Assembly (NCBI GenBank): GCA_944389445.1
Contig: CALXMJ010000083.1
Span: 1-34,904, forward strand
Direction: 5' to 3'
Source: an uncultured Victivallales bacterium
Lineage (GTDB): Bacteria > Verrucomicrobiota > Lentisphaeria > Victivallales > UBA1829
DNA length: 34,904 nucleotides
This document shows positions 1-24,007 of this stretch, piece by piece. The notes below the pieces were generated by a model, which ran no database searches, was not told where the DNA came from, and saw only the letters and a list, made by a program, of their open reading frames with translations. The position numbers and the translations under genes were made by a program. Numbering within the stretch: position 1 is the stretch's first letter; every line of letters begins with the position of its first letter.

Positions 1-2
1 AC

Positions 3-593: not shown

Positions 594-596
594 AAA

Positions 597-3790: not shown

Positions 3791-4368
3791 GCGTCCTCGG
3801 AAACATTCTCTGCCGCGGCAACACCTGGCCGGTCGGACGGACGCTCACGGCGCGTTTCGCGCGATGGCTCGGGCGGCTGCTTGCGCTGCGCCACCGGAAC
3901 GTCGAGCTCGCCCGCTCGGTCATGATCGCTCCGGACGCGCGTGTGAATCCCCGCGACGGCAGAATTGCGATCGGGGAACGCTCCCTCCTCGCCTCGGGCG
4001 CGATGGTCGAGGGGGAAGTCACGATCGGGGACGACTCTTCGGTCCAGAACTACACGATCATCGTCGGCTATCCCGGCAACGGAGCGGTCCGCATCGGCAG
4101 CAAAGTCCGGATCGCCGCCCACACCATGATCGTCGCGACAAATCACGTGTTTGCCGATCCGAATCGTCCGATTCACGGACAGGGGTTGAAACCGGAACCG
4201 ATTACGATTGAAGATGATGTATGGATCGGGGGGAATGTTTTCATCACGGCGGGAGTCACCATCGGCAGCGGCTCGGTCATCGGGGCGGGGTCGGTGGTGA
4301 CCCGGTCCATTCCGCCGCGGAGCGTCGCGGTCGGCGCTCCGGCCCGGGTCATCCGTCGCCGGGAGTGA
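3787..4368 (+). CDS. Hexapeptide-repeat (left-handed beta-helix) O-acyltransferase
   Basis: PITIEDDVWIGGNVFITAGVTIGSGSVIGAGSVVTRSIP...VGAPARVIR; ATGA overlap with the upstream gene. Confidence 0.9.
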   Translation: MSVLGNILCRGNTWPVGRTLTARFARWLGRLLALRHRNVELARSVMIAPDARVNPRDGRIAIGERSLLASGAMVEGEVTIGDDSSVQNYTIIVGYPGNGAVRIGSKVRIAAHTMIVATNHVFADPNRPIHGQGLKPEPITIEDDVWIGGNVFITAGVTIGSGSVIGAGSVVTRSIPPRSVAVGAPARVIRRRE

Positions 4369-4387
4369 GCCGAATTCCGGATCGGGC

Positions 4388-4416
4388 TTGACTTTCCGTT
4401 GCAGAAGCGCTATTTT
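4388..4416 (+). promoter_or_regulatory. Putative sigma70 promoter for the beta-helix/AraC genes
   Basis: TTGACT (4388-4393), 17-nt spacer, TATTTT (4411-4416) in an 80-bp intergenic gap. Confidence 0.45.
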
Positions 4417-4448
4417 CGTTTCCATACAGAAAATCGGCAGGTGTTCTC

Positions 4449-6320
4449 ATGAAAAAAATTCCGCTCATGCTCGCGGCCGGAATTCTCTCGGCCGGGTTGT
4501 TCGCCGCAACGCTGCACGTGGCTCCAGACGGCGACGGGGAATCCGTGTTCCGGACCATCGGAGCGGCCGCGATCCGGGCGCAGCCGGGCGATGTGATTCT
4601 CGTCCGCCCCGGCGTCTATCGGGAACACATCGCACCGGAACGCGGCGGCGAGGCGGGAAAACCGATCGTCTACCGCGCCGCGAAAGCAGGAACGGTGTTC
4701 GTCCGCGGCAGCGAAATCTGGAAACCGGAACTCACTCCGGTGGCAGGACAAAACAACGTTTTCACCACTCCGACACCGGACGACGCATTCTTCGGAGATT
4801 TCCCGAATCCGTTCAAACGCAAGCTGAATGCGGGCAGCTCCGACAAAAAAGAACCCGCCCGCCCTGCCGACAGTGCGCTGCTGCCCTACTCGCTCGGGCA
4901 GATTTTCTGCGACGGACGGGAGCTGCGCCAATCGCAGACGGTCGAGGAAGTAGACCGGGTACCGGAGAGCTGGATCCTCTCGCCCGACGGAAAGAGTCTC
5001 CGGCTGCACATGCCTCCGGGATATGACCCGAGCCGTTCACAGCTCGAGCTTTCCGTGCGAGACCGGGTGTTCGCTCCGGCGCGACGCGGGCTCGGCTACA
5101 TCGAGATCGAGGGTTTCATCTTCGAGCACTGCGCAAATCAGGCGCCCTTTCCGCAGCTCGGGATGGTTTCGACCCGCAGCGGTCATGACTGGGTGATCCG
5201 CAACAACGTGATCCGCCATGCCAAAACGGTCGGCCTCGACGTCGGCAGCGAATACTGGCGCACCGATCTGCTGCCGAAAACCACACCGGAAGACCGGAAA
5301 CTGCTGCGCAAAGGCGGACGCCACCTCGTCACCGGAAACCTCATTGTCGAAAACGGTCTCTGCGGCATCGCCGGATGGAGCTGCCGCGGCGTGAAGATCA
5401 TCGGCAACACCATCGAACGCAATAATTTACTCTCTCTGACCACGAGCGAATGCAACTGGGAGGAGTGGGCCGGAATCAAACTGCACGAAGCGGATGAGGC
5501 GCTTGTCGAAGGCAATCTCGTCCGCTTCAACGGCGCCCATGGGATCTGGTTCGACAACGGCTACAATCAGGCGCGCATCACGCGGAATTTCGTTTTCGGC
5601 AATGTCGGGACGGGGATATTCATCGAGCTCGGCGCTGGCAACATCCTCATCGACAATAACATCGTGGCGAATACGACGCCGTTCTTCGGGCCCTATCCGG
5701 GACGGGGGATCTACGCGCACGACGCCTCCGGCGTGCGGATCTGCCACAATCTCGTCATCGACAACAAGGCCGAGGCGGTCTACATGCAGAACGTCACCGA
5801 CCGGAAATATCACGGCAAAATCGTCGAGACCTCCGATGAACTCGTGGTCAACAACATCTTCGCAAACAACGGCGGCGGCGTGAGCCTGCCGTTCCCGGAG
5901 AAACGTTCCGGCAACTGCGTCACGGACCACAATCTCTTCGTCGGCGACGTGAACTTCCGGTACAGCGCCGGGACCGCCTGGGAACAGATTCTCGCCGCAG
6001 TGAAACCGAAGCTGACGCGGGAAGAACTGGTTCGCGCGGAACTCATCCGCGGCTTCGCCCCCGCCGTGTGGCCGAAAGTATCCGGCCGCGAAACGGGATC
6101 GATCTTTCTTTCGCAGCGCGAATTCCAGATCCGGATCAAACCGTTTGAACCGTCGATCTACATCCGGAACGTCTCCGGGAAAACCTTTGTGTTCGAGCCG
6201 GTTGCGGGAGTGGAGCGGGATTTTCTCGGTCAGCCTTACGGGAAAACCGTCCAGCCCGGTCCGTTTCAGGATCTCAGCAGCCGGACCGATTACCGGCTGC
6301 TCTTCCCGGTCCGGAGATGA
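4449..6320 (+). CDS. Secreted right-handed parallel beta-helix protein (putative polysaccharide lyase/hydrolase)
   Basis: Signal peptide MKKIPLMLAAGILSAGLFA; FRTIGAAA..AQPGD.I.VRPGVYRE N-cap; repeated GIKLH/GIWFD/GIFIE/GIYAH and NN ladders. Confidence 0.85.
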   Translation: MKKIPLMLAAGILSAGLFAATLHVAPDGDGESVFRTIGAAAIRAQPGDVILVRPGVYREHIAPERGGEAGKPIVYRAAKAGTVFVRGSEIWKPELTPVAGQNNVFTTPTPDDAFFGDFPNPFKRKLNAGSSDKKEPARPADSALLPYSLGQIFCDGRELRQSQTVEEVDRVPESWILSPDGKSLRLHMPPGYDPSRSQLELSVRDRVFAPARRGLGYIEIEGFIFEHCANQAPFPQLGMVSTRSGHDWVIRNNVIRHAKTVGLDVGSEYWRTDLLPKTTPEDRKLLRKGGRHLVTGNLIVENGLCGIAGWSCRGVKIIGNTIERNNLLSLTTSECNWEEWAGIKLHEADEALVEGNLVRFNGAHGIWFDNGYNQARITRNFVFGNVGTGIFIELGAGNILIDNNIVANTTPFFGPYPGRGIYAHDASGVRICHNLVIDNKAEAVYMQNVTDRKYHGKIVETSDELVVNNIFANNGGGVSLPFPEKRSGNCVTDHNLFVGDVNFRYSAGTAWEQILAAVKPKLTREELVRAELIRGFAPAVWPKVSGRETGSIFLSQREFQIRIKPFEPSIYIRNVSGKTFVFEPVAGVERDFLGQPYGKTVQPGPFQDLSSRTDYRLLFPVRR

Positions 6321-7105
6321 AAGGCGGTGGCGGGATGGATTATCCGATCGACTATCCGGTCAAACTGCTGAATATTCACACTTCCAGTTTCGATGGATCC
6401 TATTCCTACCCTCGTCATTACCAGAAATTTCCGCAACTCTATCTCGTACTGGAGGGGAAAGTTTTCTATGAGGCGGACGGCGAGGAACTCACATTGACCG
6501 GCGGCTGCGGCGTCTGGGTTGCGCCCGGTTGCCTGCGGGCTCCGCGCGCGGGATCCGATTCCGGGCGGAAACTCGTCGGCATTTTTCTCGCCCGGCAGGA
6601 GCTGTTTCCCGACTCGGCGGGGATCCGGCGGATCACCCTCGACGGGTCGGGTCGCCGCGACGCAGCGGAATGCGCCGATGCCGTCGAACGCGGCGGTTCC
6701 GGCGCAGTGATTCAACTGCTGTTCAACCGCCTCTGCTACACGCTGGAGGCGGCTCTCTTCGAGCCGCCTCCCCCGCACGATCCGCGGCGGGAGCGGGAGG
6801 AATCGACGGTCCGCGCCCTCGAGAGAATCATGAGTGCAAATTTAGGCAACCCGCTCTCTTTCGAGGAATTATGTCGTCTCGCCCATCTCTCGCAATCGAG
6901 TGCGGGGAGGAGTTTCCGCCATCGGCTCGGAGTCTCACCGATGGAGCATTACCGCAGAATGCGCCTCGAACGCGGAGCGGAACTGATCCGATCCGGGCAC
7001 AGCACGGTCTCGGAAGCGGCATTCGCGACCGGATTCTCCTCTTCGCAACATTTCGCGACGGCATTCCGAAACTGTTTCGGGAAAACCCCGACGGAACGGA
7101 ATTGA
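6317..7105 (+). CDS. AraC-family transcriptional regulator
   Basis: N-terminal cupin-like domain; C-terminal double HTH ending VSEAAFATGFSSSQHFATAFRNCFGKTP. Alternative start at 6335. Confidence 0.92.
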   Translation: MKGGGGMDYPIDYPVKLLNIHTSSFDGSYSYPRHYQKFPQLYLVLEGKVFYEADGEELTLTGGCGVWVAPGCLRAPRAGSDSGRKLVGIFLARQELFPDSAGIRRITLDGSGRRDAAECADAVERGGSGAVIQLLFNRLCYTLEAALFEPPPPHDPRREREESTVRALERIMSANLGNPLSFEELCRLAHLSQSSAGRSFRHRLGVSPMEHYRRMRLERGAELIRSGHSTVSEAAFATGFSSSQHFATAFRNCFGKTPTERN

Positions 7106-7204
7106 CCGGATTTTATACAGAAAAGAGCAGTTCTTGAACGAAATTCCTGATTTTTCCGGTTATATTTCGTCAGTTTTCCATACATGAAACTGGAGGATGA
7201 AGCC

Positions 7205-8281
7205 ATGGATCCAATCAAAGTCGGAATCATCGGATTCGGCCGCAGCGGATGCAACATCCATGCCGACGCAATCGCCCGGATGCCGGAACTGTTTGAAGTG
7301 TGTGCGATCTGCGACCTGCTGCCGGAACGACGCAAGCATGAGGCGTTTCCGCACGCGAAACCGTATGCGGACCATCGCGAACTGCTTGCGGACCCTGCGG
7401 TCGAACTTGTAGTGGTTGCCCCGCCGAACTGTTACCACGCCTCTTTCGCCGTCGAAGCACTGAACGCGGGCAAACACGTGCTGTGCGAAAAGCCGTTCGG
7501 CTTCACCACCGCGGATGTCGATGCGATGATCGCGGCGTCGAAACGGGCGAACCGCATTCTGCAGCCCTTTCAGCAGCGGCGCTATGAGGAGGATTTCCGC
7601 AAAGTGCTCGAGATCTGCCGCAGCGGCCGGCTCGGGGCCATCGATTTCATCCGCATTTCGTGGGTCGGATTCAGCCGCCGCTGGGACTGGCAGACCTCCC
7701 GCCGGTTCGGCGGGGGTCAGCTCTATAACAACATGCCGCACCTCGTCGATCATGCTCTCGAACTCTTCGGAGAAACAGTCCCGGCAGTCTGGTGCACGAT
7801 CAACAACGCCCTTTCCAGCGGAGACGCCGAGGACGAAGTTCACCTGATTCTGCACGCGCCGGGAGCTCCGACCGTGGAAGTCGAAATGGCGGCGACTGCC
7901 GCCTATCCGCTCGACCGCTGGTATGTCTGCGGAACGGCCGGCGGACTGCGCGGCAACGCAACTCATCTCGAATGGAAGTGGGTCGACTGGAGCAAAATGC
8001 CGGAACGCCCGCTCGATCTCCATCCGACAGCCGGGCGCAGCTACAACAGCGAAACCCTCGAATGGCACAGCGACAGCTGGGATGCGGAACAGCAGAGCGA
8101 CGCGGGTGCCGGCGCCGCGCCCGCGCCCAAACCGGTCATGGCTCTCTACTCGGGCCTCTACCGGGCCATCCGGCAGGGAGCGCCTCAGGAGATCACGCCG
8201 GAGCAGGTGCGCCGCCGCGTAGCCGTCCTTGAACAGTGTTACCGCATGAATCAAATCCCGTTTCCGAAAGGGACCCGCTGA
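7205..8281 (+). CDS. Gfo/Idh/MocA family oxidoreductase
   Basis: GGAGG RBS; IKVGIIGFGRSG Rossmann motif; ALNAGKHVLCEKP. Confidence 0.92.
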   Translation: MDPIKVGIIGFGRSGCNIHADAIARMPELFEVCAICDLLPERRKHEAFPHAKPYADHRELLADPAVELVVVAPPNCYHASFAVEALNAGKHVLCEKPFGFTTADVDAMIAASKRANRILQPFQQRRYEEDFRKVLEICRSGRLGAIDFIRISWVGFSRRWDWQTSRRFGGGQLYNNMPHLVDHALELFGETVPAVWCTINNALSSGDAEDEVHLILHAPGAPTVEVEMAATAAYPLDRWYVCGTAGGLRGNATHLEWKWVDWSKMPERPLDLHPTAGRSYNSETLEWHSDSWDAEQQSDAGAGAAPAPKPVMALYSGLYRAIRQGAPQEITPEQVRRRVAVLEQCYRMNQIPFPKGTR

Positions 8282-8283
8282 AA

Positions 8284-9027
8284 ATGGATTCTCTTACCGC
8301 TTATCTCGGAATTAAGACCTATTCGTTCCGCTCCATCCCGGCCAACCCGGATGTCGCCGCAGCCGTGAAAGAGTGCGGGGTACGCACGGCGGATCTCTCA
8401 GGATGCCATGTGAACTATGCGAAACCGCGGAGCTGGCCGGATGTGATTGCGGCTTACCATGATGCGGGAGTTCGCCTCTCCGGCATCGGCGTGGCGGGAT
8501 GTTCGCCGGACGAAGAAAAAAACCGTCCGTTCTTTGAATTCGCCCGACTGGCGGGATGCGGCGTCGTGAGCGTCACGTTCCCGCCGGAAGAGCACGAGAT
8601 GACGCTGAAAATCCTCGAGGCGCTCTCGGAAGAGTACGGATTGCGCGTCGCGATCCACAACCACGGCGGCTATGACTGGCTCGGCAACTCGACGATTCTG
8701 CGCTATATCTTTGCGCGCACCTCATCCCGGATCGGGCTCTGCCTCGATACGGCGTGGTGCATGCAATCGGGTGAAAATCCCGTTGCCTGGCTCGAAGAGT
8801 TCGGCAGGCGGCTTTCCGGAATCCACTTCAAGGATTTCACGTTCGCCCCCGACGGGACGGCCCGGGACACCGTCGTCGGCGAGGGAGCGCTCCATCTTCC
8901 GGAGCTGCTCGCCCGGTTTCGCGCGCTCGATTTCTCCGGCAGCGCGGTTGTGGAATATGAGGGTGACGATCCCGTCGCCGCTTCCGCCGCCTCGGTGCGG
9001 AACATCCTCCGGCTCTATCCGGAATGA
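8284..9027 (+). CDS. Sugar phosphate isomerase/epimerase (xylose-isomerase-like TIM barrel, IolE-like)
   Basis: Metal-binding motifs AIHNH, LCLDTAW, IHFKD, VGEG and VVEYE. Confidence 0.85.
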   Translation: MDSLTAYLGIKTYSFRSIPANPDVAAAVKECGVRTADLSGCHVNYAKPRSWPDVIAAYHDAGVRLSGIGVAGCSPDEEKNRPFFEFARLAGCGVVSVTFPPEEHEMTLKILEALSEEYGLRVAIHNHGGYDWLGNSTILRYIFARTSSRIGLCLDTAWCMQSGENPVAWLEEFGRRLSGIHFKDFTFAPDGTARDTVVGEGALHLPELLARFRALDFSGSAVVEYEGDDPVAASAASVRNILRLYPE

Positions 9028-9051
9028 ACCACTCTCCCGCCTCGCTTCAAC

Positions 9052-9075
9052 CGGCCGCCCGCGCGGCCGTTTTTT
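9052..9075 (+). terminator. Rho-independent terminator
   Basis: CGGCCGC-ccgc-GCGGCCG 7-bp stem followed by TTTTTT, about 25 nt after the stop codon. Confidence 0.8.
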
Positions 9076-9132
9076 GTTTTCAATGCCGGAGAAATCCTTT
9101 TCCCGGTGGAAAAAAATAGTTTTTTGAAGAGA

Positions 9133-9210
9133 GAATGCCGTCTGGTGCTCAAACGCCAGATGGCATCACCTTTTCCTGTTCTAATCTTTTCAAAACTCTA
9201 TCGCTGATAT
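9133..9210 (+). repeat. ~78-bp dispersed direct repeat with hairpin, copy 1
   Basis: First 36 nt match 14644-14679 at 35/36, with weaker similarity continuing to 9210. Contains the stem ATGCCGTCTGG...CCAGATGGCAT. Confidence 0.85.
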
Positions 9211-9211
9211 T

Positions 9212-9333
9212 TTCCTTTACCATGGGGCTCACTGGGCATACACGCCGCAAGCCGCCGAAAAGTGCTGAAAGAGTTTCGCGGCGAATGGTTCGGCGCTCAC
9301 ATTACCTATCCCGGAAAGTACCGGAATCCGTAA
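9212..9333 (+). pseudogene. Possible orphan 3' fragment of a deleted gene
   Basis: With one frameshift it reads FLYHGAHWAYTPQAAE/KVLKEFRGEWFGAHITYPGKYRNP*. Looks protein-like but the family was not recognised. Confidence 0.25.
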
Positions 9334-9351
9334 AGGGACTCCGCCGCCGGA

Positions 9352-9507
9352 GCGATTGAAATCGCTGAAAAAGAGATTCGGACGCATCTTGACGGACTGG
9401 TTCGGCAGTCCAGCGAGGGATACGTTGCATACGGGAGGCTCCGCCAAGTCACGTTTGTCGTCTGTAATCGCTCAGGAACAAATGTGCGCAAAACTTCGGA
9501 CACTACC
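9352..9507 (+). mobile_element. Internally deleted IS256-family remnant
   Basis: AIEIAEKEIRTHLDGLVRQSSE/DTL resembles the IS256 transposase N-terminus. It ends in an IS256-type terminal sequence GTGCGCAAAACTTCGGACACTACC (reverse complement GGTAGTGTCC...). Confidence 0.7.
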
Positions 9508-10354
9508 GAGCAGAGTGAAGCATATTTCTTTGTTTGAAAAAAGTGCGATATTCAGTTGGAGAACGGCCGGTATGCTTTTTCATGAATCGAGAAAGATAGA
9601 ATTCCGAACTGAAAGCAAGTTTTCCCGCCACCTCTCTCAAAGTAATTGACGGATCAGCAAGAAGAGCCATTACTTTCCGCAGAAGTATATTGGTCAGATA
9701 TGTTTTTGGTGTTAGCTTAAACCTGTTTTTGAATCTTCTGCGGAAAACATCCGCATTCATTTCCATTTTTTCAGCCAGTGATTCCACTGTCATTAACGCA
9801 TTGCATTGTTCAGAAATAAACGGCAGCAATCGGTCTAAAATCGGATCGGATTTTTGCATTTCACTCTCGGTTCCTTCCGGCCAATGTTTCAAAAAGAAAT
9901 CCAGCAGCAAAGCGCGGATGCGGCAAACTTGCCGCATTGCATTTTCATCCTGCCAAATCCGGGCCATTTCCTGAATCATTGCAGAGGCGTCTCCTTCAAG
10001 GCATTGAGAATTTTCCGAATTGAAAAGATCTATCCCTGGAAATTTTTCAAAACCAACATGAAATGTATAATACATAATTCCAGGTTGGAGACAGTAATCA
10101 GCCGCTTGCCCGCTTGGAATAAAATAAAAATGATTTTCCTTCAGAATACGGGAAAAACCAATTCCGTTGTCGATAAAACTCTCTCCTGAATTATCGCTTT
10201 CAAATACAAGAACCAAAATATTGTAAGGGAAAACGCATCTGTCATGAAACGACAGGCGTTCTTTGCGGAGAAGATGCAGAACAATCATGTTCGATGCATT
10301 GAACAACGAGAGATGACTTTTATCTTCAATGTCGGGAAAGTGCATGATTTCCAT
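9503..10354 (-). CDS. AraC-family transcriptional regulator
   Basis: C-terminal HTH pair (TVESLAEKMEM...TLREVAGKLAFSSEFYLSRFMKKHTGRSPTEYR); divergent from the SDR-GRE operon. Confidence 0.9.
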   Translation of the reverse strand: MEIMHFPDIEDKSHLSLFNASNMIVLHLLRKERLSFHDRCVFPYNILVLVFESDNSGESFIDNGIGFSRILKENHFYFIPSGQAADYCLQPGIMYYTFHVGFEKFPGIDLFNSENSQCLEGDASAMIQEMARIWQDENAMRQVCRIRALLLDFFLKHWPEGTESEMQKSDPILDRLLPFISEQCNALMTVESLAEKMEMNADVFRRRFKNRFKLTPKTYLTNILLRKVMALLADPSITLREVAGKLAFSSEFYLSRFMKKHTGRSPTEYRTFFKQRNMLHSAR

Positions 10355-10434
10355 TATAAAAATCCATTCCTTTTGCCTTTTTTTGATATATAATAATATA
10401 CAAAGAAATTACAAAAAAACAAAGAGCGGTTCAA

Positions 10435-11202
10435 ATGAAAAAAAATGATCTTGACTTTACCGGAAAGACAGCAATCGTTACCGGAGGAAGGCGCGGTATC
10501 GGGCGGGCCATAGCGTTGGCGTATGCCGAACATGGCGCAGAAGTGGCAGTCATTGCAAAGAACCATGATGGAAGCGGGATTCTTGCCGATCTGGAAAAAA
10601 CAGGAACGCCGGGACATTATTTTTCATGCGACATCGGTGACGAATCGTCACGCCGCGGCTTAATCGCCGAAGTCGTGAAACAATTGGGAGGGCGGCTTGA
10701 TATTCTGGTGAACAACGCAGGAATGCAATTCGTTGAAACCATAGAAAACTGTACTGAAGACAACTGGAAAAAAAGCGAAGCGCTTATGCTGGATGCTCCC
10801 TATGACTTTTCCAGGCAGGCGATCCCCTTTATGAAAGCCCAACACAATGGAAAGATAATCATGATCTCGTCCATTTGCGCCATACGGGAAGGCGGTGCAA
10901 ATTTCGGCTATGGAGTCATGAAAGCCGGAGTTGCCGCCATGGCTCGCTGCATGGCGAATTCGCTTGCTCAATACAACATTCAGGTCAATGCGATCGCTCC
11001 CGGTATTATTCGTACTGATCTGACAGAGCGGCAAGGTTGTTTTGAGGATCACCGTTACAAGTCCGTTATTCAGAAATATCCGGCCGGACGTTTGGGAGAA
11101 CCGGAGGAAATCGCCGGAGTCGCTTTGTTTCTCGGCAGTAACTTGAGTTCATTTATGGATGGGCAGCTGTTGATTGTAGATGGCGGCTTTTCCGGTAATT
11201 AA
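10435..11202 (+). CDS. Short-chain dehydrogenase/reductase (SDR)
   Basis: TGGRRGIG, LVNNAG, YGVMK (YxxxK), VNAIAPG and VDGG motifs. Confidence 0.95.
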   Translation: MKKNDLDFTGKTAIVTGGRRGIGRAIALAYAEHGAEVAVIAKNHDGSGILADLEKTGTPGHYFSCDIGDESSRRGLIAEVVKQLGGRLDILVNNAGMQFVETIENCTEDNWKKSEALMLDAPYDFSRQAIPFMKAQHNGKIIMISSICAIREGGANFGYGVMKAGVAAMARCMANSLAQYNIQVNAIAPGIIRTDLTERQGCFEDHRYKSVIQKYPAGRLGEPEEIAGVALFLGSNLSSFMDGQLLIVDGGFSGN

Positions 11203-11221
11203 CTGAAATATGGAGTTTTTT

Positions 11222-13468
11222 ATGAAATATGCAGAAATCAAGCGGGAATGGGGAAATTACTATCGTGGGATATCATCCCATTGTGTCTCAAGGCCGTTCA
11301 ACCCTCTGAAAAAGGAGATGGACGCTTTCGCGGAGGCCAATCCCGGTCTTTCCCCCATGATGCTCAAGGCCGGACAATATGAAATCATCGCCGATAAATT
11401 CATACCGGTTTTGCTGCCGCATAATCCGTTTTTCTTTGAAACCGGTCTGAAAATGGCGGAATATGATGGCCGCGTTGATCTGAGTTCCGGCGGCTGGTTG
11501 TATTTACGCAATGTGGCGCTGTATTCAGATTCTCCGGAAAAGGCCGCAGATTACAGGCGGTACTGCTATGGCGATTTGATCGGTCTGCATCTGTCGTACG
11601 GGCCGTACTATGATTACGATCACCACTGTTTCCCGTTCTCCAACATGCTGGAACTGGGATTGTCCGGTATATTGAAGCGTCTTGAAGAGGGACATGCCGG
11701 AAATACGGAACCGGAAAAAGCCGAATTCTATGAAGCTGCCCGGCGCGGCATTCTGGCAGTTCGGAAAATCGCCGAAAAGTTTGCCGCCGCCGCAGAGGAG
11801 AAACTCGCCTCGGCCGAATCTCCGGAGGAAAGGAAAAATCTGGAACGGATACGGACGGCCGCACGCCGGATACCGTGGAATCCGCCGCAGACATTTTACG
11901 AAGGCCTGGAATGCCTTTGGTTCTTCCATGAGCTCGGCAGTGTTCTCGACGGCATCGGCATGTCCGTTCTGGGGTCTCCCGACCGCCAGCTTATCCGGCT
12001 TTACCGCCGGGATATTCAGGAGAAACGCCTGACTGAAGCGGAAGCCTACGAACTGATCTGCCTGTATATGCTTCAGACGGACAGCAAACTTGATTTCGAC
12101 CGTCCGATTGAGGGGCAGTTCAACGCCGGAGAACAGGGAGACACGCTGATTCTTGGCGGTCTGGATGAGAGCGGCAATGATGTGACCAATGAACTCACCT
12201 TCCTTTTTCTGAAGGCGCATCGCGAATTGAAACTGACCTATCCCAAAATTCATATCCGTTTCAGTTCCAGGACGCCGGCAGTTCTGTTCCAGGAGGCGGC
12301 CAAAGACTTTCTGGCCGACCGGAACGTGCTGTCGTTTCTGAACGACGACATTGTCATCCCGTCCCAGATCATGGCGGGCAAAACGCCTGAAAGCGCAGCA
12401 AGGTATGTGGCGGGCGGCTGCTGGGAGAACATTCTGGAGGGATATGAGCACAGTCAGGGCGCCAACAGCTATTTCAGTCTCGGAAAATGCGTTGATCTGA
12501 GTATCCATGAGGAGAATGAGGATGAAAAGTCACTTGAACTGCCGTTCCGGAAACTTGACGGCGCCACTTCGTTCGAGGGGGTCTATTCCATTGTAATGGA
12601 TAATATAAAACTGGCGCTGCATCAGCTTTTCAGCATCCAGCAGAAATATGGCGCTCTGTGGACGCAGGTCAATCCCTGTCCGTTTTTCTCCGCCTGTCTG
12701 AACGGCTGCGCCGAAAGCGGCCGGGACTATTCCGCGGGCGGAGCATGTTACAGTCCGCATGGCATTCCGTTCACCGGGGTTGCGGTACTGGTAGATTCCC
12801 TGCTCGCGCTGAAGACGATCTGTTTCGGAGAAAATCCCGTTCCGCTGCCGCGCCTCCTCGCAGTGATCCGCAATGACTGGCGTGATGCGGAGGCGCTGCG
12901 CTGCCGGGCTATGGCTTCTCCGCATCTGGGCGACGGCAAGGGGGAAGCCGCACGGTTGACGGCTCGCATTCTCAATGACCTAGCGGATTATGTCGCCGGT
13001 TTCCGCAACGAATTGGGCGGAATATATCAGTGCGGGCTCTACAGTTACCGTGATATCATCGACTGGGCGAAGGTCACCCGGGCGACACCGGATGGCCGCA
13101 GAGCCGGAGATTTTCTCTCGCAGGGACTGACCCCGGCGCGGACGCACGCCGATGCCGTAACGCAGGTATTCTCCGACACGGCGTCGTTGCCGCTGCTCCG
13201 CTTCCCGGCCAATTCCGTGCTGACCTTGAGCCTGTCGAAGAACGGTCTGACGGAGGCGCTGCTGAGCGGGTTCCTGAAAGCGTGGGTACTTGTCCGCGGA
13301 AGCGGTATGCTGCAGCTGAACTGCATCAGCCGGGAAGAGCTTGAGGATGCGCAGAAAAATCCGCAGAATCATGCTTCGCTGATTGTCCGGCTCTACGGAT
13401 ATTCCGCAAAATTCATCACGCTTTCAGAAGAAAAGCAGCGTGAATTCATCTCCCGCAACATATACTGA
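11222..13468 (+). CDS. Glycyl radical enzyme (PFL-like superfamily), substrate unknown
   Basis: P.TFYEGL, Cys loop GGCWEN, ATPDGRRAG, LQLNC, Gly loop LIVRLYGYSAKF; activase adjacent. GGAG RBS favours the ATG at 11222 (ORF opens at 11210). Confidence 0.9.
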   Translation: MKYAEIKREWGNYYRGISSHCVSRPFNPLKKEMDAFAEANPGLSPMMLKAGQYEIIADKFIPVLLPHNPFFFETGLKMAEYDGRVDLSSGGWLYLRNVALYSDSPEKAADYRRYCYGDLIGLHLSYGPYYDYDHHCFPFSNMLELGLSGILKRLEEGHAGNTEPEKAEFYEAARRGILAVRKIAEKFAAAAEEKLASAESPEERKNLERIRTAARRIPWNPPQTFYEGLECLWFFHELGSVLDGIGMSVLGSPDRQLIRLYRRDIQEKRLTEAEAYELICLYMLQTDSKLDFDRPIEGQFNAGEQGDTLILGGLDESGNDVTNELTFLFLKAHRELKLTYPKIHIRFSSRTPAVLFQEAAKDFLADRNVLSFLNDDIVIPSQIMAGKTPESAARYVAGGCWENILEGYEHSQGANSYFSLGKCVDLSIHEENEDEKSLELPFRKLDGATSFEGVYSIVMDNIKLALHQLFSIQQKYGALWTQVNPCPFFSACLNGCAESGRDYSAGGACYSPHGIPFTGVAVLVDSLLALKTICFGENPVPLPRLLAVIRNDWRDAEALRCRAMASPHLGDGKGEAARLTARILNDLADYVAGFRNELGGIYQCGLYSYRDIIDWAKVTRATPDGRRAGDFLSQGLTPARTHADAVTQVFSDTASLPLLRFPANSVLTLSLSKNGLTEALLSGFLKAWVLVRGSGMLQLNCISREELEDAQKNPQNHASLIVRLYGYSAKFITLSEEKQREFISRNIY

Positions 13469-13471
13469 GAG

Positions 13472-14389
13472 ATGCCGCCTGATATGACCGCTGCTGATAC
13501 AAAAATCTTTGATATCGGACACTTCTCCGTGCATGACGGGCCGGGCATCCGCACGACTGTGTTTCTGAAAGGATGTCCTTTACGGTGCCTCTGGTGCCAT
13601 AACCCGGAATCGCAGTCAGAAAAAAGTGAAATATTCTTTACCCCGTCCCGGTGTGTGGGCTGCGGAGCGTGTTTCACTGTCTGCCCGGCGTCATGCCACC
13701 GCATGGAAAACAAGATGCATCTCTTTGACCGGAAACGATGCACGCAATGCGGGATTTGCGCCGCAAACTGTCCCGCCGGCGCCCTTGAGTTGTGCGGCAG
13801 GCATCTTTCACCGGAAGAAGTCATGGCGGAAGTTCTGAAAGACCGGGTTTTTTATGAAACTTCAGGCGGCGGCATGACGGTTTCCGGCGGGGAGCCGCTG
13901 GCGCACTTCGATTATCTGTTCCACCTGCTTTCACTGGCCCGGAAGGAGAAAATCCATACCTGCGTTGAAACATCCGGCTATGCTTCGTTCGAGCATATCC
14001 GCGCCCTGATTCCGCTGGTCAGTCTGTGGCTGTGGGATTTCAAGGCTTCCGAAGCGGATCACCGCAGGCTTACCGGCGTGGAGGCGGAGCGGATCCGCGG
14101 CAACCTGCGAAAGCTCGATGCGTGCGGCGCGCCGCTGGTTTTACGTTGCCCATGGATTCCGGAGATCAACGATTCCTCCGCTTACAGCGAGGAACTTCTT
14201 GAAATCTCGGCAGAGCTGAAAAGTGTCAGGAGAATTGAAATCGAACCCTACCAGCCATTAGGAGAGGACAAATATAAGCGTCTGGGACGGCCATTGCTCT
14301 GTGAAGCGAAATTCCCTTCAAAAAAGGCGAGCGGGGATTACCTGAAATTCCTTCAGAACCGGACAAACATCCCGGTCGTCGAGGGGTAA
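13472..14389 (+). CDS. Glycyl-radical enzyme activating enzyme (radical SAM with 2x[4Fe-4S] ferredoxin insert)
   Basis: HDGPGIRTTVFLKGCPLRCLWCHNPES, CVGCGACFTVCP, CTQCGICAANCP and SGGEP. Confidence 0.95.
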   Translation: MPPDMTAADTKIFDIGHFSVHDGPGIRTTVFLKGCPLRCLWCHNPESQSEKSEIFFTPSRCVGCGACFTVCPASCHRMENKMHLFDRKRCTQCGICAANCPAGALELCGRHLSPEEVMAEVLKDRVFYETSGGGMTVSGGEPLAHFDYLFHLLSLARKEKIHTCVETSGYASFEHIRALIPLVSLWLWDFKASEADHRRLTGVEAERIRGNLRKLDACGAPLVLRCPWIPEINDSSAYSEELLEISAELKSVRRIEIEPYQPLGEDKYKRLGRPLLCEAKFPSKKASGDYLKFLQNRTNIPVVEG

Positions 14390-14610
14390 CAACAAGCCGT
14401 CCGAACGCCTCACCTGGAACATCCGAAAGAACTGCCTCTTTGCCGGAAACGAAGCCGGTGGGCAGCGTCTCGCAACTGTATTCATTCGCTGCAACATGCA
14501 AAGCGAACGGCATCTGCTTTCGCAAGTGGCTCGAAGACGGTCTGCCGCGTTTGAATTCCACTCCAGCAGAGCAGATTGATTCTCTGATCCCCAAGGGAGA
14601 AGTAAAATAG
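14388..14610 (+). mobile_element. IS66-family transposase (TnpC) C-terminal remnant, frameshifted
   Basis: NN..SER...RKNCLFAGNEAGGQRLA/YSFAATCKANGICFRKWLEDGLPRLNSTPAEQIDSLIP matches the IS66 TnpC C-terminal pattern (RKNWLF.G...G...A..YS...TCK.NG). Confidence 0.8.
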
Positions 14611-14643
14611 TCAATGAGCTCAGGCTCATTATTATGAAGCGGG

Positions 14644-14721
14644 GAATGCCGTCTGGTGCTCAAACGCCAGACGGCATCATTTTCTCCTAGCTCTAATTTT
14701 TTCCAAAGCTCTCCGCGATAT
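14644..14721 (+). repeat. ~78-bp dispersed direct repeat with hairpin, copy 2
   Basis: Perfect 11-bp stem ATGCCGTCTGG-N10-CCAGACGGCAT; matches 9133-9210. Confidence 0.85.
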
Positions 14722-14883
14722 GTGAATTTTTACAACTCCGGGCGGATTCATTCGGCACTCCATATCGGACGCCGGATGAAGTCTGTTTCGGTACTTGCAA
14801 TCGGCCAACAATGGGATATAGTAAACCAAGACTTTTACACTAATTTTCCCATAAAAATTGTCTAGGCGGCAGGGCGATACGCA
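14716..14883 (+). mobile_element. IS3-family remnant: integrase C-terminus plus probable right end
   Basis: RYVNFYNSGRIHSAL/YRTPDEV (YN..R.HS.L.Y.TP motif, frameshifted), stop at 14841-14843, then ...TTGTCTAGGCGGCAGGGCGATACGCA ending in CA. Confidence 0.7.
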
Positions 14884-14933
14884 TTATTCTCTGAATGTCT
14901 GAGCTTTATAAAACCAGAAACGAGTATAAAATT

Positions 14934-17231
14934 ATGAAACCATGGGAATTGCAATATTTTTCTCCGTCACCGCAGAGTGAAGTCAGAAAACGTCCGGCGT
15001 GGAAACTGCTGGATGACGGAACCTATGAGATTCATACCGGCTGGGGCGGCGAGGAGCCCGGATGGGAGCAGTGGGCTCTTCCGCTCGGATGCGGCTGGTT
15101 CGGAACAAAGATCTTCGGGGGAGTCCCGCTTGAACGGATTCAAATTACGGAAAACTCCCTTGCCAATCCTTACCCGGAGGGACTCAACAGTTTTGCGGAA
15201 CTCTTTCTGGAAACCGGTCATGAGGAATACACCGGCTACCGGCGTGCCCTTTCGCTGGACGATGCGGTCGCCGAGACGGAATATGTCAGCGGCGGGGTCC
15301 GATACCATCGCGAATGTTTCAACTCCTATCCCGACCGCGTTGCCGTCCTGCGGATTACCGCCTCGAAACCTGGAGCAGTAAGCGGTCGGATCTTCGCGAT
15401 CCTTCCCTTTCTCAAGGAGTTCGGGGCACAGCCCGGTGACGGCAAAGGAAAATCCGGAAAAATCTATTACGAAAACAATCGGATTGTCATGTCCGGTCAT
15501 ATGGACTATTATGAAATCGACTACGAAGGCGAGATCCGTGTACAGGCGGAAAACGGAGTCGTAAGTGCCGATTCAAACGGCATTTCGATCAAAGAGGCGG
15601 ACCGCCTGACTCTCTATTTCTCGTGCGGCACAAACTATTGTCTGGAAAGCAGGGTTTTCGAAGAGAAGGACCCGAAAAAGAAACTTGCGCCGTATCCGCA
15701 TCCGCAGGAGAAAATCCGGCAGACGCTCGACCGGGCTCTCAAACTCGGATTCGAGGAACTCAAGCTCCGTCATCTGGAGGATTATCACGACCTTTTCCGA
15801 CGAGCTGAGATTGATCTGGGAGGCGTTCGGGAGCCGGACAAAGGCACCGATCTTCTGCTGGAAGAATATAAAGCGGGAAAAGAATCCCGTTATCTGGAGG
15901 AACTCTACTTTCAGTACGGCCGTTATCTGCTGATCTGTTCCTCGCGGAAACAGACTCTTCCATGCAATCTTCAAGGCGTCTGGAATGTCTACGATTCCAG
16001 CCCTTGGAGCTGCGGCTACTGGCACAACATCAATGTGCAGATGAACTACTGGCCCGTTTTTTCCTGTAATCTGACCGAACTGTTTGAATCCTATGCGGAT
16101 TATCATAAGGCCTATCTTCCTCAGGCGCGGAAATACGCCGCACAGTATCTGAAGGAGATAAATCCGGATCAGACACATTCCGAATGCGGCTGGACGATCG
16201 GAACCGGAGCATGGCCCTATCGGATCTCCGCGCCCTCCGCGAAAGGGCATTCGGGACCCGGAACGGGTGGCTTGACGGCAAAACTTTTCTGGGAATACTA
16301 CGATTTCACAAGGAATCCGGAGATCCTGCGCAGAATCTATCCGATTCTCCGGGGAATGTCCGTTTTTCTGTTTCACTGTCTCCGGAAACGCGGAGATGTG
16401 TTTCTTGCCGTGCCCTCCGCTTCGCCGGAACAGGTGGATGTCTCGCCGGAACAGAAAGGCTATCTCCATACGGAAGGGTGCGCCTTCGATCAGCAGATGA
16501 TTTATGAGACCTTTCACGATACACTCCGTGCCGCGGAAGCATTGCAGATCGAAGAGCCATTCCTGAATACGATTCGCGAAATTCTGCCTCATCTGGAGCC
16601 GGTTCTCATCGGAGACTCCGGACAGATCAAGGAGTTCCGTGAGGAACACGAATACGGGGAATTCGGAGAAAAGCATCATCGCCATATCTCCCAGCTCATC
16701 GGACTGATGCCGGGAACCATCATCAGCGAGAAGACGCCGGAGTGGATGGAAGCCGCGCGCGTTTCCCTCACGAAACGCGGCGATCTTTCCACAGGATGGG
16801 CGATGGCTCACCGTCTGAATGCCTGGGCAAGACTCGGCGACGGGGAACATGCCTTCCGCCTTCTTCAGACGCTTCTTTCCAAAGGGACTCTTCCCAATCT
16901 ATGGGATACGCATCCTCCGTTCCAGATCGACGGCAATCTTGGTGGAACCGCAGGGATTGCGGAGATGCTTCTGCAATCGCATTCGGGCAGGATCCGTCTT
17001 CTTCCCGCTCTTCCCGCCGTCTGGAAGAACGGATCGTTTTCCGGCCTCCGTGCCCGTGGAGCATTCGAACTTTCCGCCCGGTGGGAAGACGGCATTCTGA
17101 CGCGGCTCATCATAAAATCAGAGCGTGGCGGCGAATGTCGTCTGGTCGGTCCGGGAATCCCCGGCGGAGAGAACGGACTTCATCTCCGCCTGACCGCGGG
17201 AGAAGAGCGGAACATTATTCCGGCAACGTAA
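14934..17231 (+). CDS. GH95 glycoside hydrolase (alpha-L-fucosidase/alpha-L-galactosidase family), no signal peptide
   Basis: FQYGRYLLICSSR, LQGVWN, NINVQMNYW, SPE, HRHISQL, TGWAMA.R...WARL, NLWDTHPPFQIDGN. Alternative start at 14895. Confidence 0.93.
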   Translation: MKPWELQYFSPSPQSEVRKRPAWKLLDDGTYEIHTGWGGEEPGWEQWALPLGCGWFGTKIFGGVPLERIQITENSLANPYPEGLNSFAELFLETGHEEYTGYRRALSLDDAVAETEYVSGGVRYHRECFNSYPDRVAVLRITASKPGAVSGRIFAILPFLKEFGAQPGDGKGKSGKIYYENNRIVMSGHMDYYEIDYEGEIRVQAENGVVSADSNGISIKEADRLTLYFSCGTNYCLESRVFEEKDPKKKLAPYPHPQEKIRQTLDRALKLGFEELKLRHLEDYHDLFRRAEIDLGGVREPDKGTDLLLEEYKAGKESRYLEELYFQYGRYLLICSSRKQTLPCNLQGVWNVYDSSPWSCGYWHNINVQMNYWPVFSCNLTELFESYADYHKAYLPQARKYAAQYLKEINPDQTHSECGWTIGTGAWPYRISAPSAKGHSGPGTGGLTAKLFWEYYDFTRNPEILRRIYPILRGMSVFLFHCLRKRGDVFLAVPSASPEQVDVSPEQKGYLHTEGCAFDQQMIYETFHDTLRAAEALQIEEPFLNTIREILPHLEPVLIGDSGQIKEFREEHEYGEFGEKHHRHISQLIGLMPGTIISEKTPEWMEAARVSLTKRGDLSTGWAMAHRLNAWARLGDGEHAFRLLQTLLSKGTLPNLWDTHPPFQIDGNLGGTAGIAEMLLQSHSGRIRLLPALPAVWKNGSFSGLRARGAFELSARWEDGILTRLIIKSERGGECRLVGPGIPGGENGLHLRLTAGEERNIIPAT

Positions 17232-19772: not shown

Positions 19773-22700
19773 ATGACAATGAGAGTCGCTCTGCTGACAA
19801 GCTGTCTATTCGCGCCCGCCCTTCTCTTCGGACAGATTCTGTTTGAAGATTCCTTTCAGGATGCGGATACGCTGAACAACAGAAAACAATGGCCTCCCTA
19901 CCGGGAAGGCGCGGAAATCCTCCGCATGGAGGATGGAAAATTTGCACTTCATCTCTCACCGAAACCGGTGAAACCGGGATGCAGGGCCATGGTCAGCCGG
20001 CAGTTCGATCTGAACAGCGTCCGTGGCAAACGGCTGACTGTTACCGCGGATGTCAAATGGGACATCAAGCTGCCGTTCAGCAAATGGATGGGATCGCGTT
20101 TCATGCTCTGCATCACCGGTTCCGACAAGAAAACGTCCTATGTCAGTGCATCCATTCCGCCGGGGAAATCCGACTGGAAACCCGTCGAATTTTCCGCACA
20201 GATTCCGGATGATGCCCAGAGAGTCATGCTGTTTCTCGGAATCCAGGATGCTCCCGGCGATCTATATGTGAGAAATTTGAAAGTCCGTTCCGGCGACCTT
20301 TTTCTGGACCTCTCCTCCGCGGCAAACATGACCTATCAGGATCAACAGGCCGGCGACGGCAAAGGAGGCTGGTCCGATCAGGGACCCGACAACGATGCCT
20401 CCGGATTCAATTTCCGGCAGACGACTTTCGCCAATGTTCCCTTCAACCCGCTTGATCCGGGAGCAAAAAAACGAAACACCGTCCTGACGTTTGCATCCCC
20501 GAATTTCCCGAAAGGGCTGGAAAAGGCGGAAATTTCCCTTTCCGGCACCGGAACGAATGCGGAATATCTTTATCTTCTGCACACATGCTCCTGGGGCGGA
20601 ACCAAAGGACCGGCAGGATTCATCTCAATCTCCGGCGACAGCGGAAAAATGCAGAAAATCACCGTTCAGGACAGCCGGGACGTCAGCAACTGGTGGTTCC
20701 CGAAACAGGTGGAAAACGGTGCGATCGGCTGCATCTGGAGCAATGTCTCAGGCGGAAATGTCGGATTGTATGTTACGAAATACAAGTTGGATTCCTCGCT
20801 TGGAAAGATTCGAAAGATCACATTGGAAAGCGCTCATGCCGCGCCCATCTGGATCGTAGTCGGCGCCACGCTTTCCTCCCGGGACTATCCATTCCCCAAA
20901 ACAGAAAGCACTCATATCAAGGCGGACCGGGTCTGGAAGGCGGTTCCTGTCGATACGCAGACGCAGGGAATCCGGAAAGGATCGGCGCTGGATCTCTCCC
21001 GGATTCTGCCGCTGGAGAAAGTCGGAGTTTACGGACGTGTCGTGGTCGCTCCGGACGGACATTTCACCTTTGAAAAACGTCCGGATAAACGGATCCGCTT
21101 CATGGCAGCCACCATTGACTTCTCCCTCCTCTGGGAAAAAAATCCCGATCTGGCCGGTGCTGATGATGCGGAAATCAAACGGAGAATTCGGGAATTCGCC
21201 GAAGAGATCCGCAGAAACGGATACAACATGGTCCGTCTTCATTTCTTCAATACCGCGATGATGGGAAGCGCCAGACAGGATCTGGAATTCGATCCCGTCT
21301 TCTTCGACCGATTCGATTATATGGTCCACTCCTTCAAGGAGAATGGAATTTATCTCAACTGGGATGTCTGGACCAGCGCCCCCGGTTTTCAGGCGGGCAA
21401 TCACTGGGCAAACCGTGTCGGGGATAAAAGACATTATTTCTACTATCTCTATGTGGATCCGAAGGTCCGGAACATGTGGAAGGAAGGAGTAAGGAAATTC
21501 CTGAATCGGAAGAATCCGTATACGGGAACAACACTTGCCGAAGATCCGGTGCTCGCCATTACCATCGCCGCAAACGAGCAGGACGGAATGCTCCGCGGCT
21601 GGCGCGACACCTCCGAACTTCTGCCGGAATGGAAAGCCTTCCTCCGGAAACGCTACAGCTCAATCGACGCCCTGAAGAAAGCATGGGGAAAACGGGCGGC
21701 CGCCCTCCGGGATTTCGACTCAATCACTCCTTACCGGAGTGCCGATTTTGCCACACCGGATCAGTATGGACGCGATATTACCGAATTTATCATGGAAAAG
21801 GAAAACGCTCTTGTCGATTTTTATCGGAAATCGCTTGAGGAAGCCGGATACAAGGGACTCTTCAGCCAGTGGAACATGGGACAGGAACTGTTCCGGAATC
21901 TGGAGCGTCAGAAAGTGGATGTCGTGACCATCAACGGCTATCACGCCCACCCGTCTGCATATACCAGTCCGGGATCGACAATCAGCCAGGCAAGTTCGAT
22001 TTCGCAGATTGCCGCCTGCATCCGGAATCTGAATGCCACAAAGCTCTATCGGAAACCGCTGGTGCTTACGGAATACGGCCATGTCTTCTGGAACAAATAC
22101 CGCTATGAACAGGGATTTGTCACGGGAGCCTATTCGGCCTTCCAGAATCATGACGGAATCACCGGATTCTGCAATCAGGTCCGTTCAGCACAGAAAATCA
22201 AAAATCCCAAGCAGATGTGGATCAGTCCATTTACAGGATTTGCATTCGATCCGGTGGCAAAATCGCAGGAATTCCTGACCGCTCTGATGTATCGGCGCGG
22301 GGATGTGACCCCGGCAAAAAATATGGTGCGGATCGCCGTTTCCGGCAAGAAAATCATGAAGGCTGGAGAGTGGATGGATGCGGTTCACAGCGGACAGACG
22401 CGTCTCTCTCTGGTTACAGGATTCGCTGTGGACTGCGAATCAAATCTGCCCGTCAGTCCAAACGAGCTGATTCTCCCGCTCAGCGGGAGGACTCAGCTCA
22501 ATGTTCAGGAGAAGTTCATTGAAACAAAGGAAAGTGAGGTCAACGCCTTCGACTTTGATTCAACCATCCGGATGCTGAAACAGAAAAAACAGCTGCCGGA
22601 ATCCAACCGCACCTCGGCGGAAAAAACTCAGTATGAAAGTGCAAGCGGAGAACTGTTCCTGGATCAGCACAAACGCTTCATGTCCGTTGACACACCGCGC

Positions 22701-23126
22701 CTTCAGGGAATTTGCGGAGAAGCGGGAACAAAAGCAAAACTTTCCAATCTGGAAATCCGGCAGATGAGTCCGCGTGGCAACCTTTCGCTTGCCAGTGTGG
22801 ATGGAATGAAGGATTTGCAGCAGGCGAAGCGTCTGGTCGTGGTGTTTGCGACCAATGCGCTCAACAGCGATATGCAGTTCCGTGATCTGGAAATGCGGGT
22901 TCTGAATCGGATCGGCACGCTTCCGGTTCTGGTGGAAACCGGTTCCTTCTCGCTGACCTTCCGTAATGTCAATGCGAAGAAGATGAAAGGATATGCTCTT
23001 GCCATGGATGGCTCCCGCATCGCGGAAATTCCGCTGAGACATTCCGGGAACACTGTTGAGCTGACCCTGAAATCCACAGCGTTCCCGCAGGGGCCGGCCG
23101 TCTATTTTGAAGTGGTCGCTGAATAA
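19773..23126 (+). CDS. Secreted multidomain glycoside hydrolase (CBM-like beta-sandwiches plus clan GH-A barrel, GH5/GH42-like)
   Basis: Signal peptide; [18 protein letters not shown]......NE (acid/base), [29 protein letters not shown] (nucleophile). Confidence 0.8.
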
Positions 23127-23144
23127 ATATAAGGAGTCCGGAAA

Positions 23145-23231
23145 ATGAAACCATGGAATCCGCTTCTCCTCTCTGCAGCTCGTTCTTTCGCCGTAGAAAA
23201 TGCGGAAAAAATCGGGAAAACGGATCCATGA
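23145..23231 (+). CDS. Putative 28-aa small ORF or truncated signal-peptide gene
   Basis: Strong AAGGAG RBS at 23131-23136, then [28 protein letters not shown]. The stop overlaps an ATG (23228) that is in frame with the prepilin-like gene. Confidence 0.35.
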
Positions 23232-23293
23232 AAAAATGGAATGAAATAACACTCCGGAACACAGACAGAAACCACGAAAGGAGAACTGGATAC

Positions 23294-23995: not shown

Positions 23996-24007
23996 TCCCG
24001 TGTCTTG

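Follow-up and report, generated by a model that had tools for sequence, protein, structure and literature searches.

The window analyzed here, a 34,904-nt stretch of DNA from an uncultured Victivallales bacterium, carries a real, compact, and possibly mobile cassette built around a glycyl radical enzyme (GRE) from an uncharacterized clade. The locus is a complete, self-contained GRE system of Victivallis, comprising an AraC-family regulator, a reductase of the short-chain dehydrogenase/reductase (SDR) type, the GRE, and a three-cluster radical S-adenosylmethionine (SAM) activase. The clade to which the GRE belongs, referred to here as GCW, is monophyletic, strongly conserved, and matches no characterized GRE.

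Through GREs, anaerobes can use chemically difficult substrates, and the Lentisphaerota are a phylum of glycan degraders whose metabolism has been little studied. The GCW clade is well defined: it comprises 77 loci in genomes and about 100 clusters in the protein database, Trp is invariant next to the catalytic Cys, and a reductase is inherited together with the GRE. Its main clade is mainly confined to the Lentisphaerota. It is also tractable, because Victivallis vadensis DSM 14823, a type strain available in culture, carries the same cassette. Identifying the substrate would extend the carbon flow known from gut and rumen by one reaction and perhaps by a pathway that serves as an electron sink.

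The GCW family and its gene cassette

All four cassette genes are intact open reading frames (ORFs). The regulator gene, whose product would control the operon, is divergent from the SDR, GRE, and activase genes, which lie on the plus strand with 7 nt between SDR and GRE and 3 nt between GRE and activase. The genes, and the positions within the GRE to which we refer, are as follows:

9503 to 10354, minus strand: AraC-family regulator, 283 aa (Pfam HTH_18, 60.6 bits; HTH_AraC, 52.7 bits)
10435 to 11202, plus strand: classical SDR oxidoreductase, 255 aa (adh_short_C2, PF13561, 193.6 bits)
11210 to 13468, plus strand: GRE of the GCW family, main clade, 752 aa (PF02901, 284.4 bits; PF01228, 40.4 bits)
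11621 to 11623, plus strand: His138 of the GRE (profile alignment to glycerol dehydratase His164, high posterior)
12131 to 12139, plus strand: Glu308-Gln309-Gly310 of the GRE (Glu308 invariant in the family; Gly310 at the position of glycerol dehydratase Tyr339)
12413 to 12430, plus strand: Cys loop GGCWEN, aa 402 to 407 (Cys404, Trp405, Glu406), from the sequence
13385 to 13405, plus strand: Gly loop VRLYGYS, aa 726 to 732 (Gly730), from the sequence
13472 to 14389, plus strand: radical SAM GRE activase with a ferredoxin-like insert, 305 aa (TIGR02494, 309.2 bits)

The translation start of the GRE is possibly Met5, at position 11222, the database twin P0005 being 748 aa long. An earlier note on this DNA, made from the sequence alone, had placed the GGCWEN and VRLYGYS loops exactly where they lie and had recognized a ferredoxin-insert activase; the latter assignment is borne out by a TIGR02494 score of 309.2 bits against a cut-off of 174.35, by a CX3CX2C motif at aa 35 to 42 (nt 13574 to 13597), and by two ferredoxin-type Cys motifs at aa 61 to 71 and 90 to 100 (nt 13652 to 13684 and 13739 to 13771).

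A search of 5.8 billion proteins for relatives of the GRE returned about 100 database clusters at 41 to 60% identity; the next matches are no more than 33% identical, and those members that carry a name are from Victivallales or Lentisphaeria. The tripeptide CWE occurs in all 57 database relatives that are at least 41% identical, and 50 of these also have RLYG. A pattern scan of species genomes yielded 77 family loci, and a FastTree phylogeny of 85 rows was constructed, nine rows being dropped (eight partial proteins of less than 640 aa and one duplicate). Support is 95 for the GCW family, 93 for the main clade, and 97 to 100 for three sister clades, and a neighbor-joining tree agrees on the four clades. 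The main clade (39 rows) is mostly from Lentisphaerota, with a few bins of Armatimonadota, Verrucomicrobiota, and WS1, and the sister clades are two small ones from Lentisphaerota (5 and 4 rows) and one from Clostridia (29 rows).

Trp405, Asp135, His138, Glu308, and Lys346 are each found in 77 of 77 family loci, and Cys404 and Gly730 are likewise invariant. Glu406 is present in all 44 main-clade and C137-type rows. Leu728 and Tyr729 occur in 34 and 32, respectively, of the 37 main-clade rows covering the Gly loop, and the sister clades have RVFGF, RVCGF, or RMCGF rather than RLYGY. As judged from these alignments, the Trp after the catalytic Cys and the Gly-loop motif are traits of family and clade, not chance. 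The earlier note had called the RLYGY loop atypical. It does deviate from the GRE Gly-loop fingerprint RVxG[FWY]x6-8[FL]x4Qx2[IV]x2R given in a 2026 superfamily review (PMC13450708), but mildly and in one clade only: Arg727, Gly730, Tyr731, Leu738, Gln743, and Arg749 of the fingerprint are present, the two deviations are conservative (Leu728 for Val and Phe746 for Ile/Val), Tyr729 falls at x, and the loop still fits the Gly-radical domain (PF01228, 40.4 bits against a cut-off of 22.2).

The AlphaFold2 model of the GRE (mean pLDDT 94.8) and the PF02901 score of 284.4 bits identify a PFL-like ten-stranded barrel domain. In Foldseek comparisons it matches solved eliminases, isomerases, decarboxylases, and X-succinate synthases with TM scores of 0.77 to 0.86 at 18 to 22% identity, and none stands out. 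Profiles of characterized functions do not claim it. It is not a member of the PFL2/glycerol dehydratase subfamily TIGR01774 (277.3 bits against a cut-off of 678.2), and equivalog scores are far below their cut-offs for HypD (195.5 against 1100), CutC (TIGR04394, 185.6 against 1050), HpsG (216.5 against 1000), HpfG (200.8 against 1000), the PflD-type PRK09983 (204.4 against 1109), IAD (120.6 against 1100), and HPAD (75.3 against 1150). Pyruvate formate-lyase (PFL) proper is excluded by the single Cys after Gly403 and by a TIGR01255 score of 43.7 against 994.2, from the C-terminal domain only, and an aminoacyl radical enzyme with Ala, Ser, or Thr at the radical position is excluded by the invariant Gly730. 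A profile of the family scores CutC at 414, glycerol dehydratase at 410, PFL2 at 407, and PflD at 375 bits, with propanediol dehydratase within that range. Neither the structural matches nor the profile scores nor the cut-offs cluster the GRE with a characterized enzyme, so the description of it as uncharacterized in the earlier note holds. The ESM Atlas returned generic GRE clusters only. Among the characterized GRE classes in the accessible text of the 2026 review, none has this loop or context, and the same source states in section 7 that whole GRE clades are still without experimental validation (PMC13450708). We found no literature on the GCW family or on GREs of Lentisphaerae or Victivallis, although papers beyond those searched may exist.

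The genome from which the window comes (G000) is rich in GREs, with 13 PFL-like matches. About ten are non-PFL GREs, of which nine were tested and none reaches a curated cut-off, and several paralogous clades coexist in one genome. The non-PFL GREs of this assembly lie on contigs C85, C440, C150, C58, C30, C127, C176, C137, and C287; those with scanned flanks mostly have a divergent AraC gene, and an activase of their own or a transporter (SSF, AEC) accompanies several of them. In one Victivallis genome, G002, PFL and the GCW GRE are all the GREs present.

The partner SDR has the motifs TGGRRGIG (aa 16), NNAG (aa 93), and YGVMK (aa 159) of a classical SDR and is below all NCBIfam cut-offs. Its best solved relatives, at about 1e-37, include gluconate 5-dehydrogenase (1vl8) and the DHPS dehydrogenase HpsO (8wwf, 1.9e-37), a generic match in that 237 PDB sequences fall below 1e-25. 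Basic residues occur within the glycine motif and following the second strand; by a rule that we assume to apply, the SDR probably prefers NADP(H). The linkage of SDR to GRE is specific to the main clade: of the 30 main-clade loci that could be assessed, 22 have an SDR ortholog (41 to 72% identical) in the same orientation within 1 kb upstream of the GRE, and SDR fragments are found in two further loci, as against none of 34 assessable loci of the other clades (0 of 26 in the Clostridia clade). The window's own assembly contains only two matches to the SDR above 150 bits, both beside GCW-family GREs. The SDR is thus co-inherited with the main GRE clade.

The arrangement of the two genes varies in a few loci. 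At L055, one SDR is flanked by two GREs in tandem, both of the GCW family (42 and 47% identical), and at L062 one SDR lies between two GREs, the first of which is 26% identical and has its own activase. Loci L036 (P0007, 1023 aa) and L037 have approximately 860 to 900 nt extra between SDR and GRE; in L036 this encodes a 275-aa N-terminal extension without a Pfam domain, and an SDR-GRE fusion in P0007 was ruled out, the extension having no SDR domain.

Clustering of 718 neighbor ORFs supports the minimal module described in the earlier note, since only the activase (43 loci), AraC (41), and SDR (22) recur beside the GRE; the cluster that follows in size, of 8 loci, is pseudopilin-like and belongs to a family abundant in the phylum. 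Where 2 kb or more of upstream sequence is available (26 main-clade loci), TBLASTN detected a divergent AraC gene in 15. The activase is adjacent in only 10 of 32 main-clade loci compared with 24 of 27 Clostridia loci, a pattern compatible with the sharing of activases where a genome is rich in GREs. The earlier note was also right about what the module lacks: the microcompartment shell gene PF00936 was detected in none of four genomes (G000, 89.6% complete; G002 and G010, 99%; G136, 94%), and no transporter or acyl-CoA genes were detected among the window ORFs scanned with Pfam.

Active site and predicted chemistry

Aligned with glycerol dehydratase (1r8w), the GRE keeps His164 (as His138), Ser282 (Ser252), Cys433 (Cys404), Glu435 (Glu406), and Tyr640 (Tyr611), and a counterpart of His138 is also aligned in 5i2a, PFL2 (2f3o), and PflD (8yjo). 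Judged from sequence alignment and from what we take to be the active sites of glycerol dehydratase and CutC, the pocket would include Glu308 and Lys346 as well as the His, Asp, and Glu residues that are specific to the clade. Cys404-Trp405-Glu406 conforms to the CXE motif of 1,2-eliminases and isomerases, and according to the review this motif is typical of GRE eliminases and isomerases (PMC13450708, sections 5.6 and 5.7); when glycerol is dehydrated, Glu435 acts as base and His164 as acid.

Because the Cys, Glu, and His of glycerol dehydratase are kept, we propose a radical 1,2-elimination, which the GRE would most likely perform on a small uncharged hydroxylated compound. The activase would install the radical on Gly730, and the resulting Cys404 thiyl radical would abstract H from the carbinol carbon of the substrate. 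Glu406 would take the proton of the carbinol hydroxyl to give a ketyl radical, His138 would give a proton to the leaving group on the adjacent carbon, and water or another C-O leaving group would be lost to form a carbonyl product. The SDR would either reduce this product to the alcohol as an electron sink, as DhaT does in the glycerol dehydratase operon, or alternatively convert a keto precursor into the hydroxylated substrate. Neither a transporter nor a kinase or aldolase is part of the cassette, and most of the conserved residues specific to the family are acidic, His, or aromatic, so the substrate is most likely a small, uncharged, and probably sugar-derived diol or polyol. The earlier note had named a sugar or polyol partly from the gene neighborhood; that part of the argument fails, and what is left of the proposal is what we infer here from the cassette and its residues. 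Taken as a whole, the reading that the GRE eliminates water or another C-O leaving group to give a carbonyl, coupled to the SDR, stands at about an even chance.

Several observations weigh against that reading. In the pocket, Tyr339 of 1r8w is replaced by Gly310, Val434 by Trp405, Asp447 by Ala418, and Ser642 by Tyr613. We take Asp447 and Tyr339 to be substrate-binding residues of glycerol dehydratase, and because these distal glycerol-binding positions are replaced, together with the changes at Val434 and Ser642, the pocket appears to differ from those of known dehydratases. The invariant Lys346 could bind an anionic group, contrary to a neutral substrate. The acid/base layout is also plastic, since sister clades swap Glu406 and gain Glu310: in the Clostridia clade and one small clade, position 406 is Asp, Gly, or Ala and all 33 rows have Glu at position 310, with Gly or Ala at 310 in the remaining 44 rows, which points to an acid/base residue able to change its place in the pocket across the GCW family. 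The relatives without Glu406 are L075 to L103 (the Clostridia clade), L011, L070, L071, and L073. Lastly, the CXE motif is found in GRE decarboxylases as well, as in Cys503/Glu505 of HPAD (PMC13450708, section 5.4). The earlier note had read the retained Glu as a sign of eliminase or isomerase chemistry; Glu406 together with His138 fits this, but because decarboxylases share CXE, the Glu alone is no proof of it.

A further-reaching form of the proposal is that the GCW enzymes carry out an undescribed GRE reaction on unphosphorylated sugar-derived molecules, for example the radical deoxygenation of a free hexose, 6-deoxyhexose, or alditol or the opening of its ring, that the invariant Trp, Glu308, and Lys346 would form a new substrate-binding and acid/base arrangement, and that the four-gene cassette would spread the trait among Victivallales as a mobile unit. 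In this full form we regard it as speculative and unlikely.

Known chemistry in a new lineage would account for the locus if the GRE were a divergent but isofunctional diol dehydratase acting on 1,2-propanediol, glycerol, or ethylene glycol, with the SDR serving as a lactaldehyde/hydroxy-ketone or aldehyde reductase. The Cys, Glu, His, Ser252, and Tyr611 in common with glycerol dehydratase argue for this, as does an operon logic like that of glycerol dehydratase with its activase and product reductase. Deoxyhexose-releasing enzymes also lie near 3 of the 33 main-clade loci with listed neighbors (GH95 at L041, GH106 at L046, and a rhamnogalacturonan lyase at L053; 110 of the 136 listed neighbor ORFs were scanned). 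However, Asp447 and Tyr339 are replaced, TIGR01774 reaches 277 against 678, and the family profile scores CutC (414), glycerol dehydratase (410), PFL2 (407), and PflD (375) similarly. The coexistence of paralogous clades in one genome suggests different substrates, and aldehyde dehydrogenase and microcompartment genes are absent by neighbor clustering and in the four genomes. We consider a diol dehydratase unlikely.

The retained CXE would also suit a YbiW/PflD-type isomerase whose substrate is an unphosphorylated anhydro-sugar or cyclic ether; in this scheme the SDR would make an anhydro-alditol from an anhydro-ketose and the GRE would open the ring to a deoxy-ketose; the position of the reductase gene upstream fits this order of steps. 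PflD (8yjo) is indeed the top Foldseek match, but barely ahead of others, and its identity is only 21%, with PRK09983 at 204 against 1109. No kinase, phosphotransferase system (PTS), or aldolase recurs nearby in the neighbor clustering, and the His-Asp pair that follows the Cys loop in both PflD and glycerol dehydratase is Gly-Ala in the GCW GRE. An isomerase of this kind is quite unlikely.

Other radical chemistry on a charged metabolite, by a C-N or C-S lyase or a decarboxylase with Lys346 binding the acid group, is in our judgment improbable. It would explain the presence of Lys346 in 77 of 77 loci, but the GRE scores far below the cut-offs for known enzymes of these types (HpsG and HpfG, 216 and 201 against 1000; CutC, 186 against 1050; the decarboxylases, 121 and 75 against 1100 and 1150). 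HpsO (8wwf, 1.9e-37), a partner of sulfonate GREs, is among the SDR relatives, but so generically that 237 PDB sequences fall below 1e-25. The Clostridia sister-clade loci adjoin ester- or amide-cleaving hydrolases, with a beta-lactamase fold in 6 loci, whereas no sulfite-, amine-, or CO2-handling genes recur in the neighbor clustering. The six loci are L081, L082, L083, L090, L092, and L096; others have GDSL esterases, an alpha/beta hydrolase, or an amidohydrolase. CXE is also a motif of decarboxylases (PMC13450708).

Boundaries, junction, and possible mobility of the cassette

The cassette lies between two repeats and a short distance from a change of genome lineage within the window:

9133 to 9177, plus strand: 45-nt direct repeat with a hairpin, the left copy and left edge of the cassette (repeat comparison)
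14417 to 14610, plus strand: frameshifted remnant resembling the C-terminal end of a transposase (translations)
14644 to 14688, plus strand: 45-nt direct repeat, right copy, with a terminator-like hairpin at 14646 to 14677 (repeat comparison)
14721, no strand: breakpoint at which similarity changes genome lineage (genome matches G002:C6 and G175:C63)

V. vadensis DSM 14823 shares only positions 9122 to 14475 with the window, at 99.5% DNA identity, and its GRE protein is 99% identical in unrelated flanks. The window's assembly belongs to one family of the Genome Taxonomy Database (GTDB), and the 100 and 99% identical GRE copies are in another, in the genus of V. vadensis. Protein identity is 99 to 100% between three genomes; the best GRE matches in genomes of the window's own genus are 49 to 52% identical. 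The two direct repeats are 91% identical, lie 5511 nt apart, and are the sole two copies in the 4.3-Mb assembly. Because DNA identity of 99% or more is maintained in unrelated flanks and the repeats bracket it, the cassette appears to be a discrete, recently rearranged or mobile unit, and the 5.4-kb element is possibly mobile.

In V. vadensis DSM 14823, 309 nt with the transposase-like remnant are found on the opposite side of the cassette. The remnant, presumably of an insertion sequence (IS) family, has one further copy on contig C147 (87% over 196 nt). Just downstream of the V. vadensis cassette (L023:9618-10115) is an IS110-type transposase fragment (DEDD_Tnp_IS110, 1.2e-11). Excision or circular forms were also considered and rejected, since the joints come from one short, diverged RNA-library contig best read as another repeat copy. 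GC content was set aside as a sign of transfer, the cassette at 0.511 being unremarkable beside 0.535 for the genome. The left flank (1 to 9100) has a GC content of 0.625, which exceeds the 95th percentile for windows of 5.5 kb in the assembly, and encodes RraA-like, beta-helix, AraC, GFO/IDH/MocA, and xylose-isomerase-like TIM barrel proteins.

Positions 1 to 14721 are 99% identical to G002, a genome of the other GTDB family (contig C6 of which matches 9020 to 14721 at 99.3%), and positions 14721 to 17070 and 21238 to 26149 are 99 to 100% identical to G175, a genome of the window's own genus (contig C63, 99.7% over 14721 to 17070). No match across the join was detected in G002 or G175. The join lies inside a repeat and cuts the end of an apparent transposase gene. 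It represents a recent transfer, of 14.7 kb or more, or else a chimeric contig. The frame at 14722 to 14800 resembles the truncated C terminus of a transposase or integrase, a family assignment that we presume, and it continues upstream in G175:C63.

To the right of 14721 are Pfam-identified genes of glycoside hydrolase (GH) families GH95, GH10, GH123, and GH2, and the earlier note had taken this surrounding richness in carbohydrate-active enzymes as a clue to the substrate. The clue does not survive: whether by transfer or chimera, the right side matches a different genome lineage, so these genes are uninformative about the cassette, and its flanks differ in three genomes. The wider neighborhood was rejected as a substrate clue too, because the 110 main-clade neighbor ORFs scanned with Pfam are a housekeeping mix with assorted glycoside hydrolases, too thin to be read.

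The cassette is present in near-identical form (at least 0.90 of sampled words) in 14 metagenome runs from 5 studies, mostly of chicken gut. RNA-library contigs with 0 to 1 differences match SDR, GRE, and activase in 4 metatranscriptome runs from 3 studies, and one crosses the GRE-activase junction (13344 to 13571); this is a weak hint of expression, as RNA libraries can hold DNA. Despite the flanking transposase remnants and repeats and the flanks that differ between genomes, it is very improbable that the cassette is a decaying or nonfunctional passenger of mobile DNA, given four open frames, catalytic residues invariant across 77 loci, 99 to 100% protein identity among three genomes, and matching RNA-library contigs.

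Comparison with characterized GRE systems

CutC has the best profile score among solved structures (414 bits) and shares the CXE motif with the GCW GRE, but TIGR04394 gives 186 against 1050, and the GCW locus is without a microcompartment and the genes of a cut cluster. The PflD/YbiW isomerases (8yjo, 8id0, and 8id7), which open the ring of 1,5-anhydro-hexitol-6-phosphate, likewise share CXE and would be alike in a sugar-type substrate class, and 8yjo leads the Foldseek matches (E 4.8e-41), barely ahead of the others; identity is nevertheless 21%, and no PTS, kinase, or aldolase context is found at GCW loci. The propanediol dehydratase of Roseburia inulinivorans (5i2a/5i2g) aligns in its catalytic Cys, Glu, and His (Foldseek E 1e-39) but is 20 to 22% identical; the GCW GRE has neither the Asp that follows the Cys loop nor an aromatic residue where Tyr339 would be, and shell genes were found in none of the four GCW-side genomes searched.

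The B12-independent glycerol dehydratase of Clostridium butyricum (1r8w/1r9d) resembles the GCW GRE in fold (TM 0.83), in its adjacent ferredoxin-insert activase, and in a compact operon with a dehydrogenase and without a microcompartment. The two GREs are 21% identical, however, and the GCW enzyme is approximately 35 residues shorter and has Glu308 and Lys346 as additional invariant residues. Whereas the product reductase of the glycerol dehydratase system is, as we take it, an iron alcohol dehydrogenase, the partner of the GCW GRE is an SDR.

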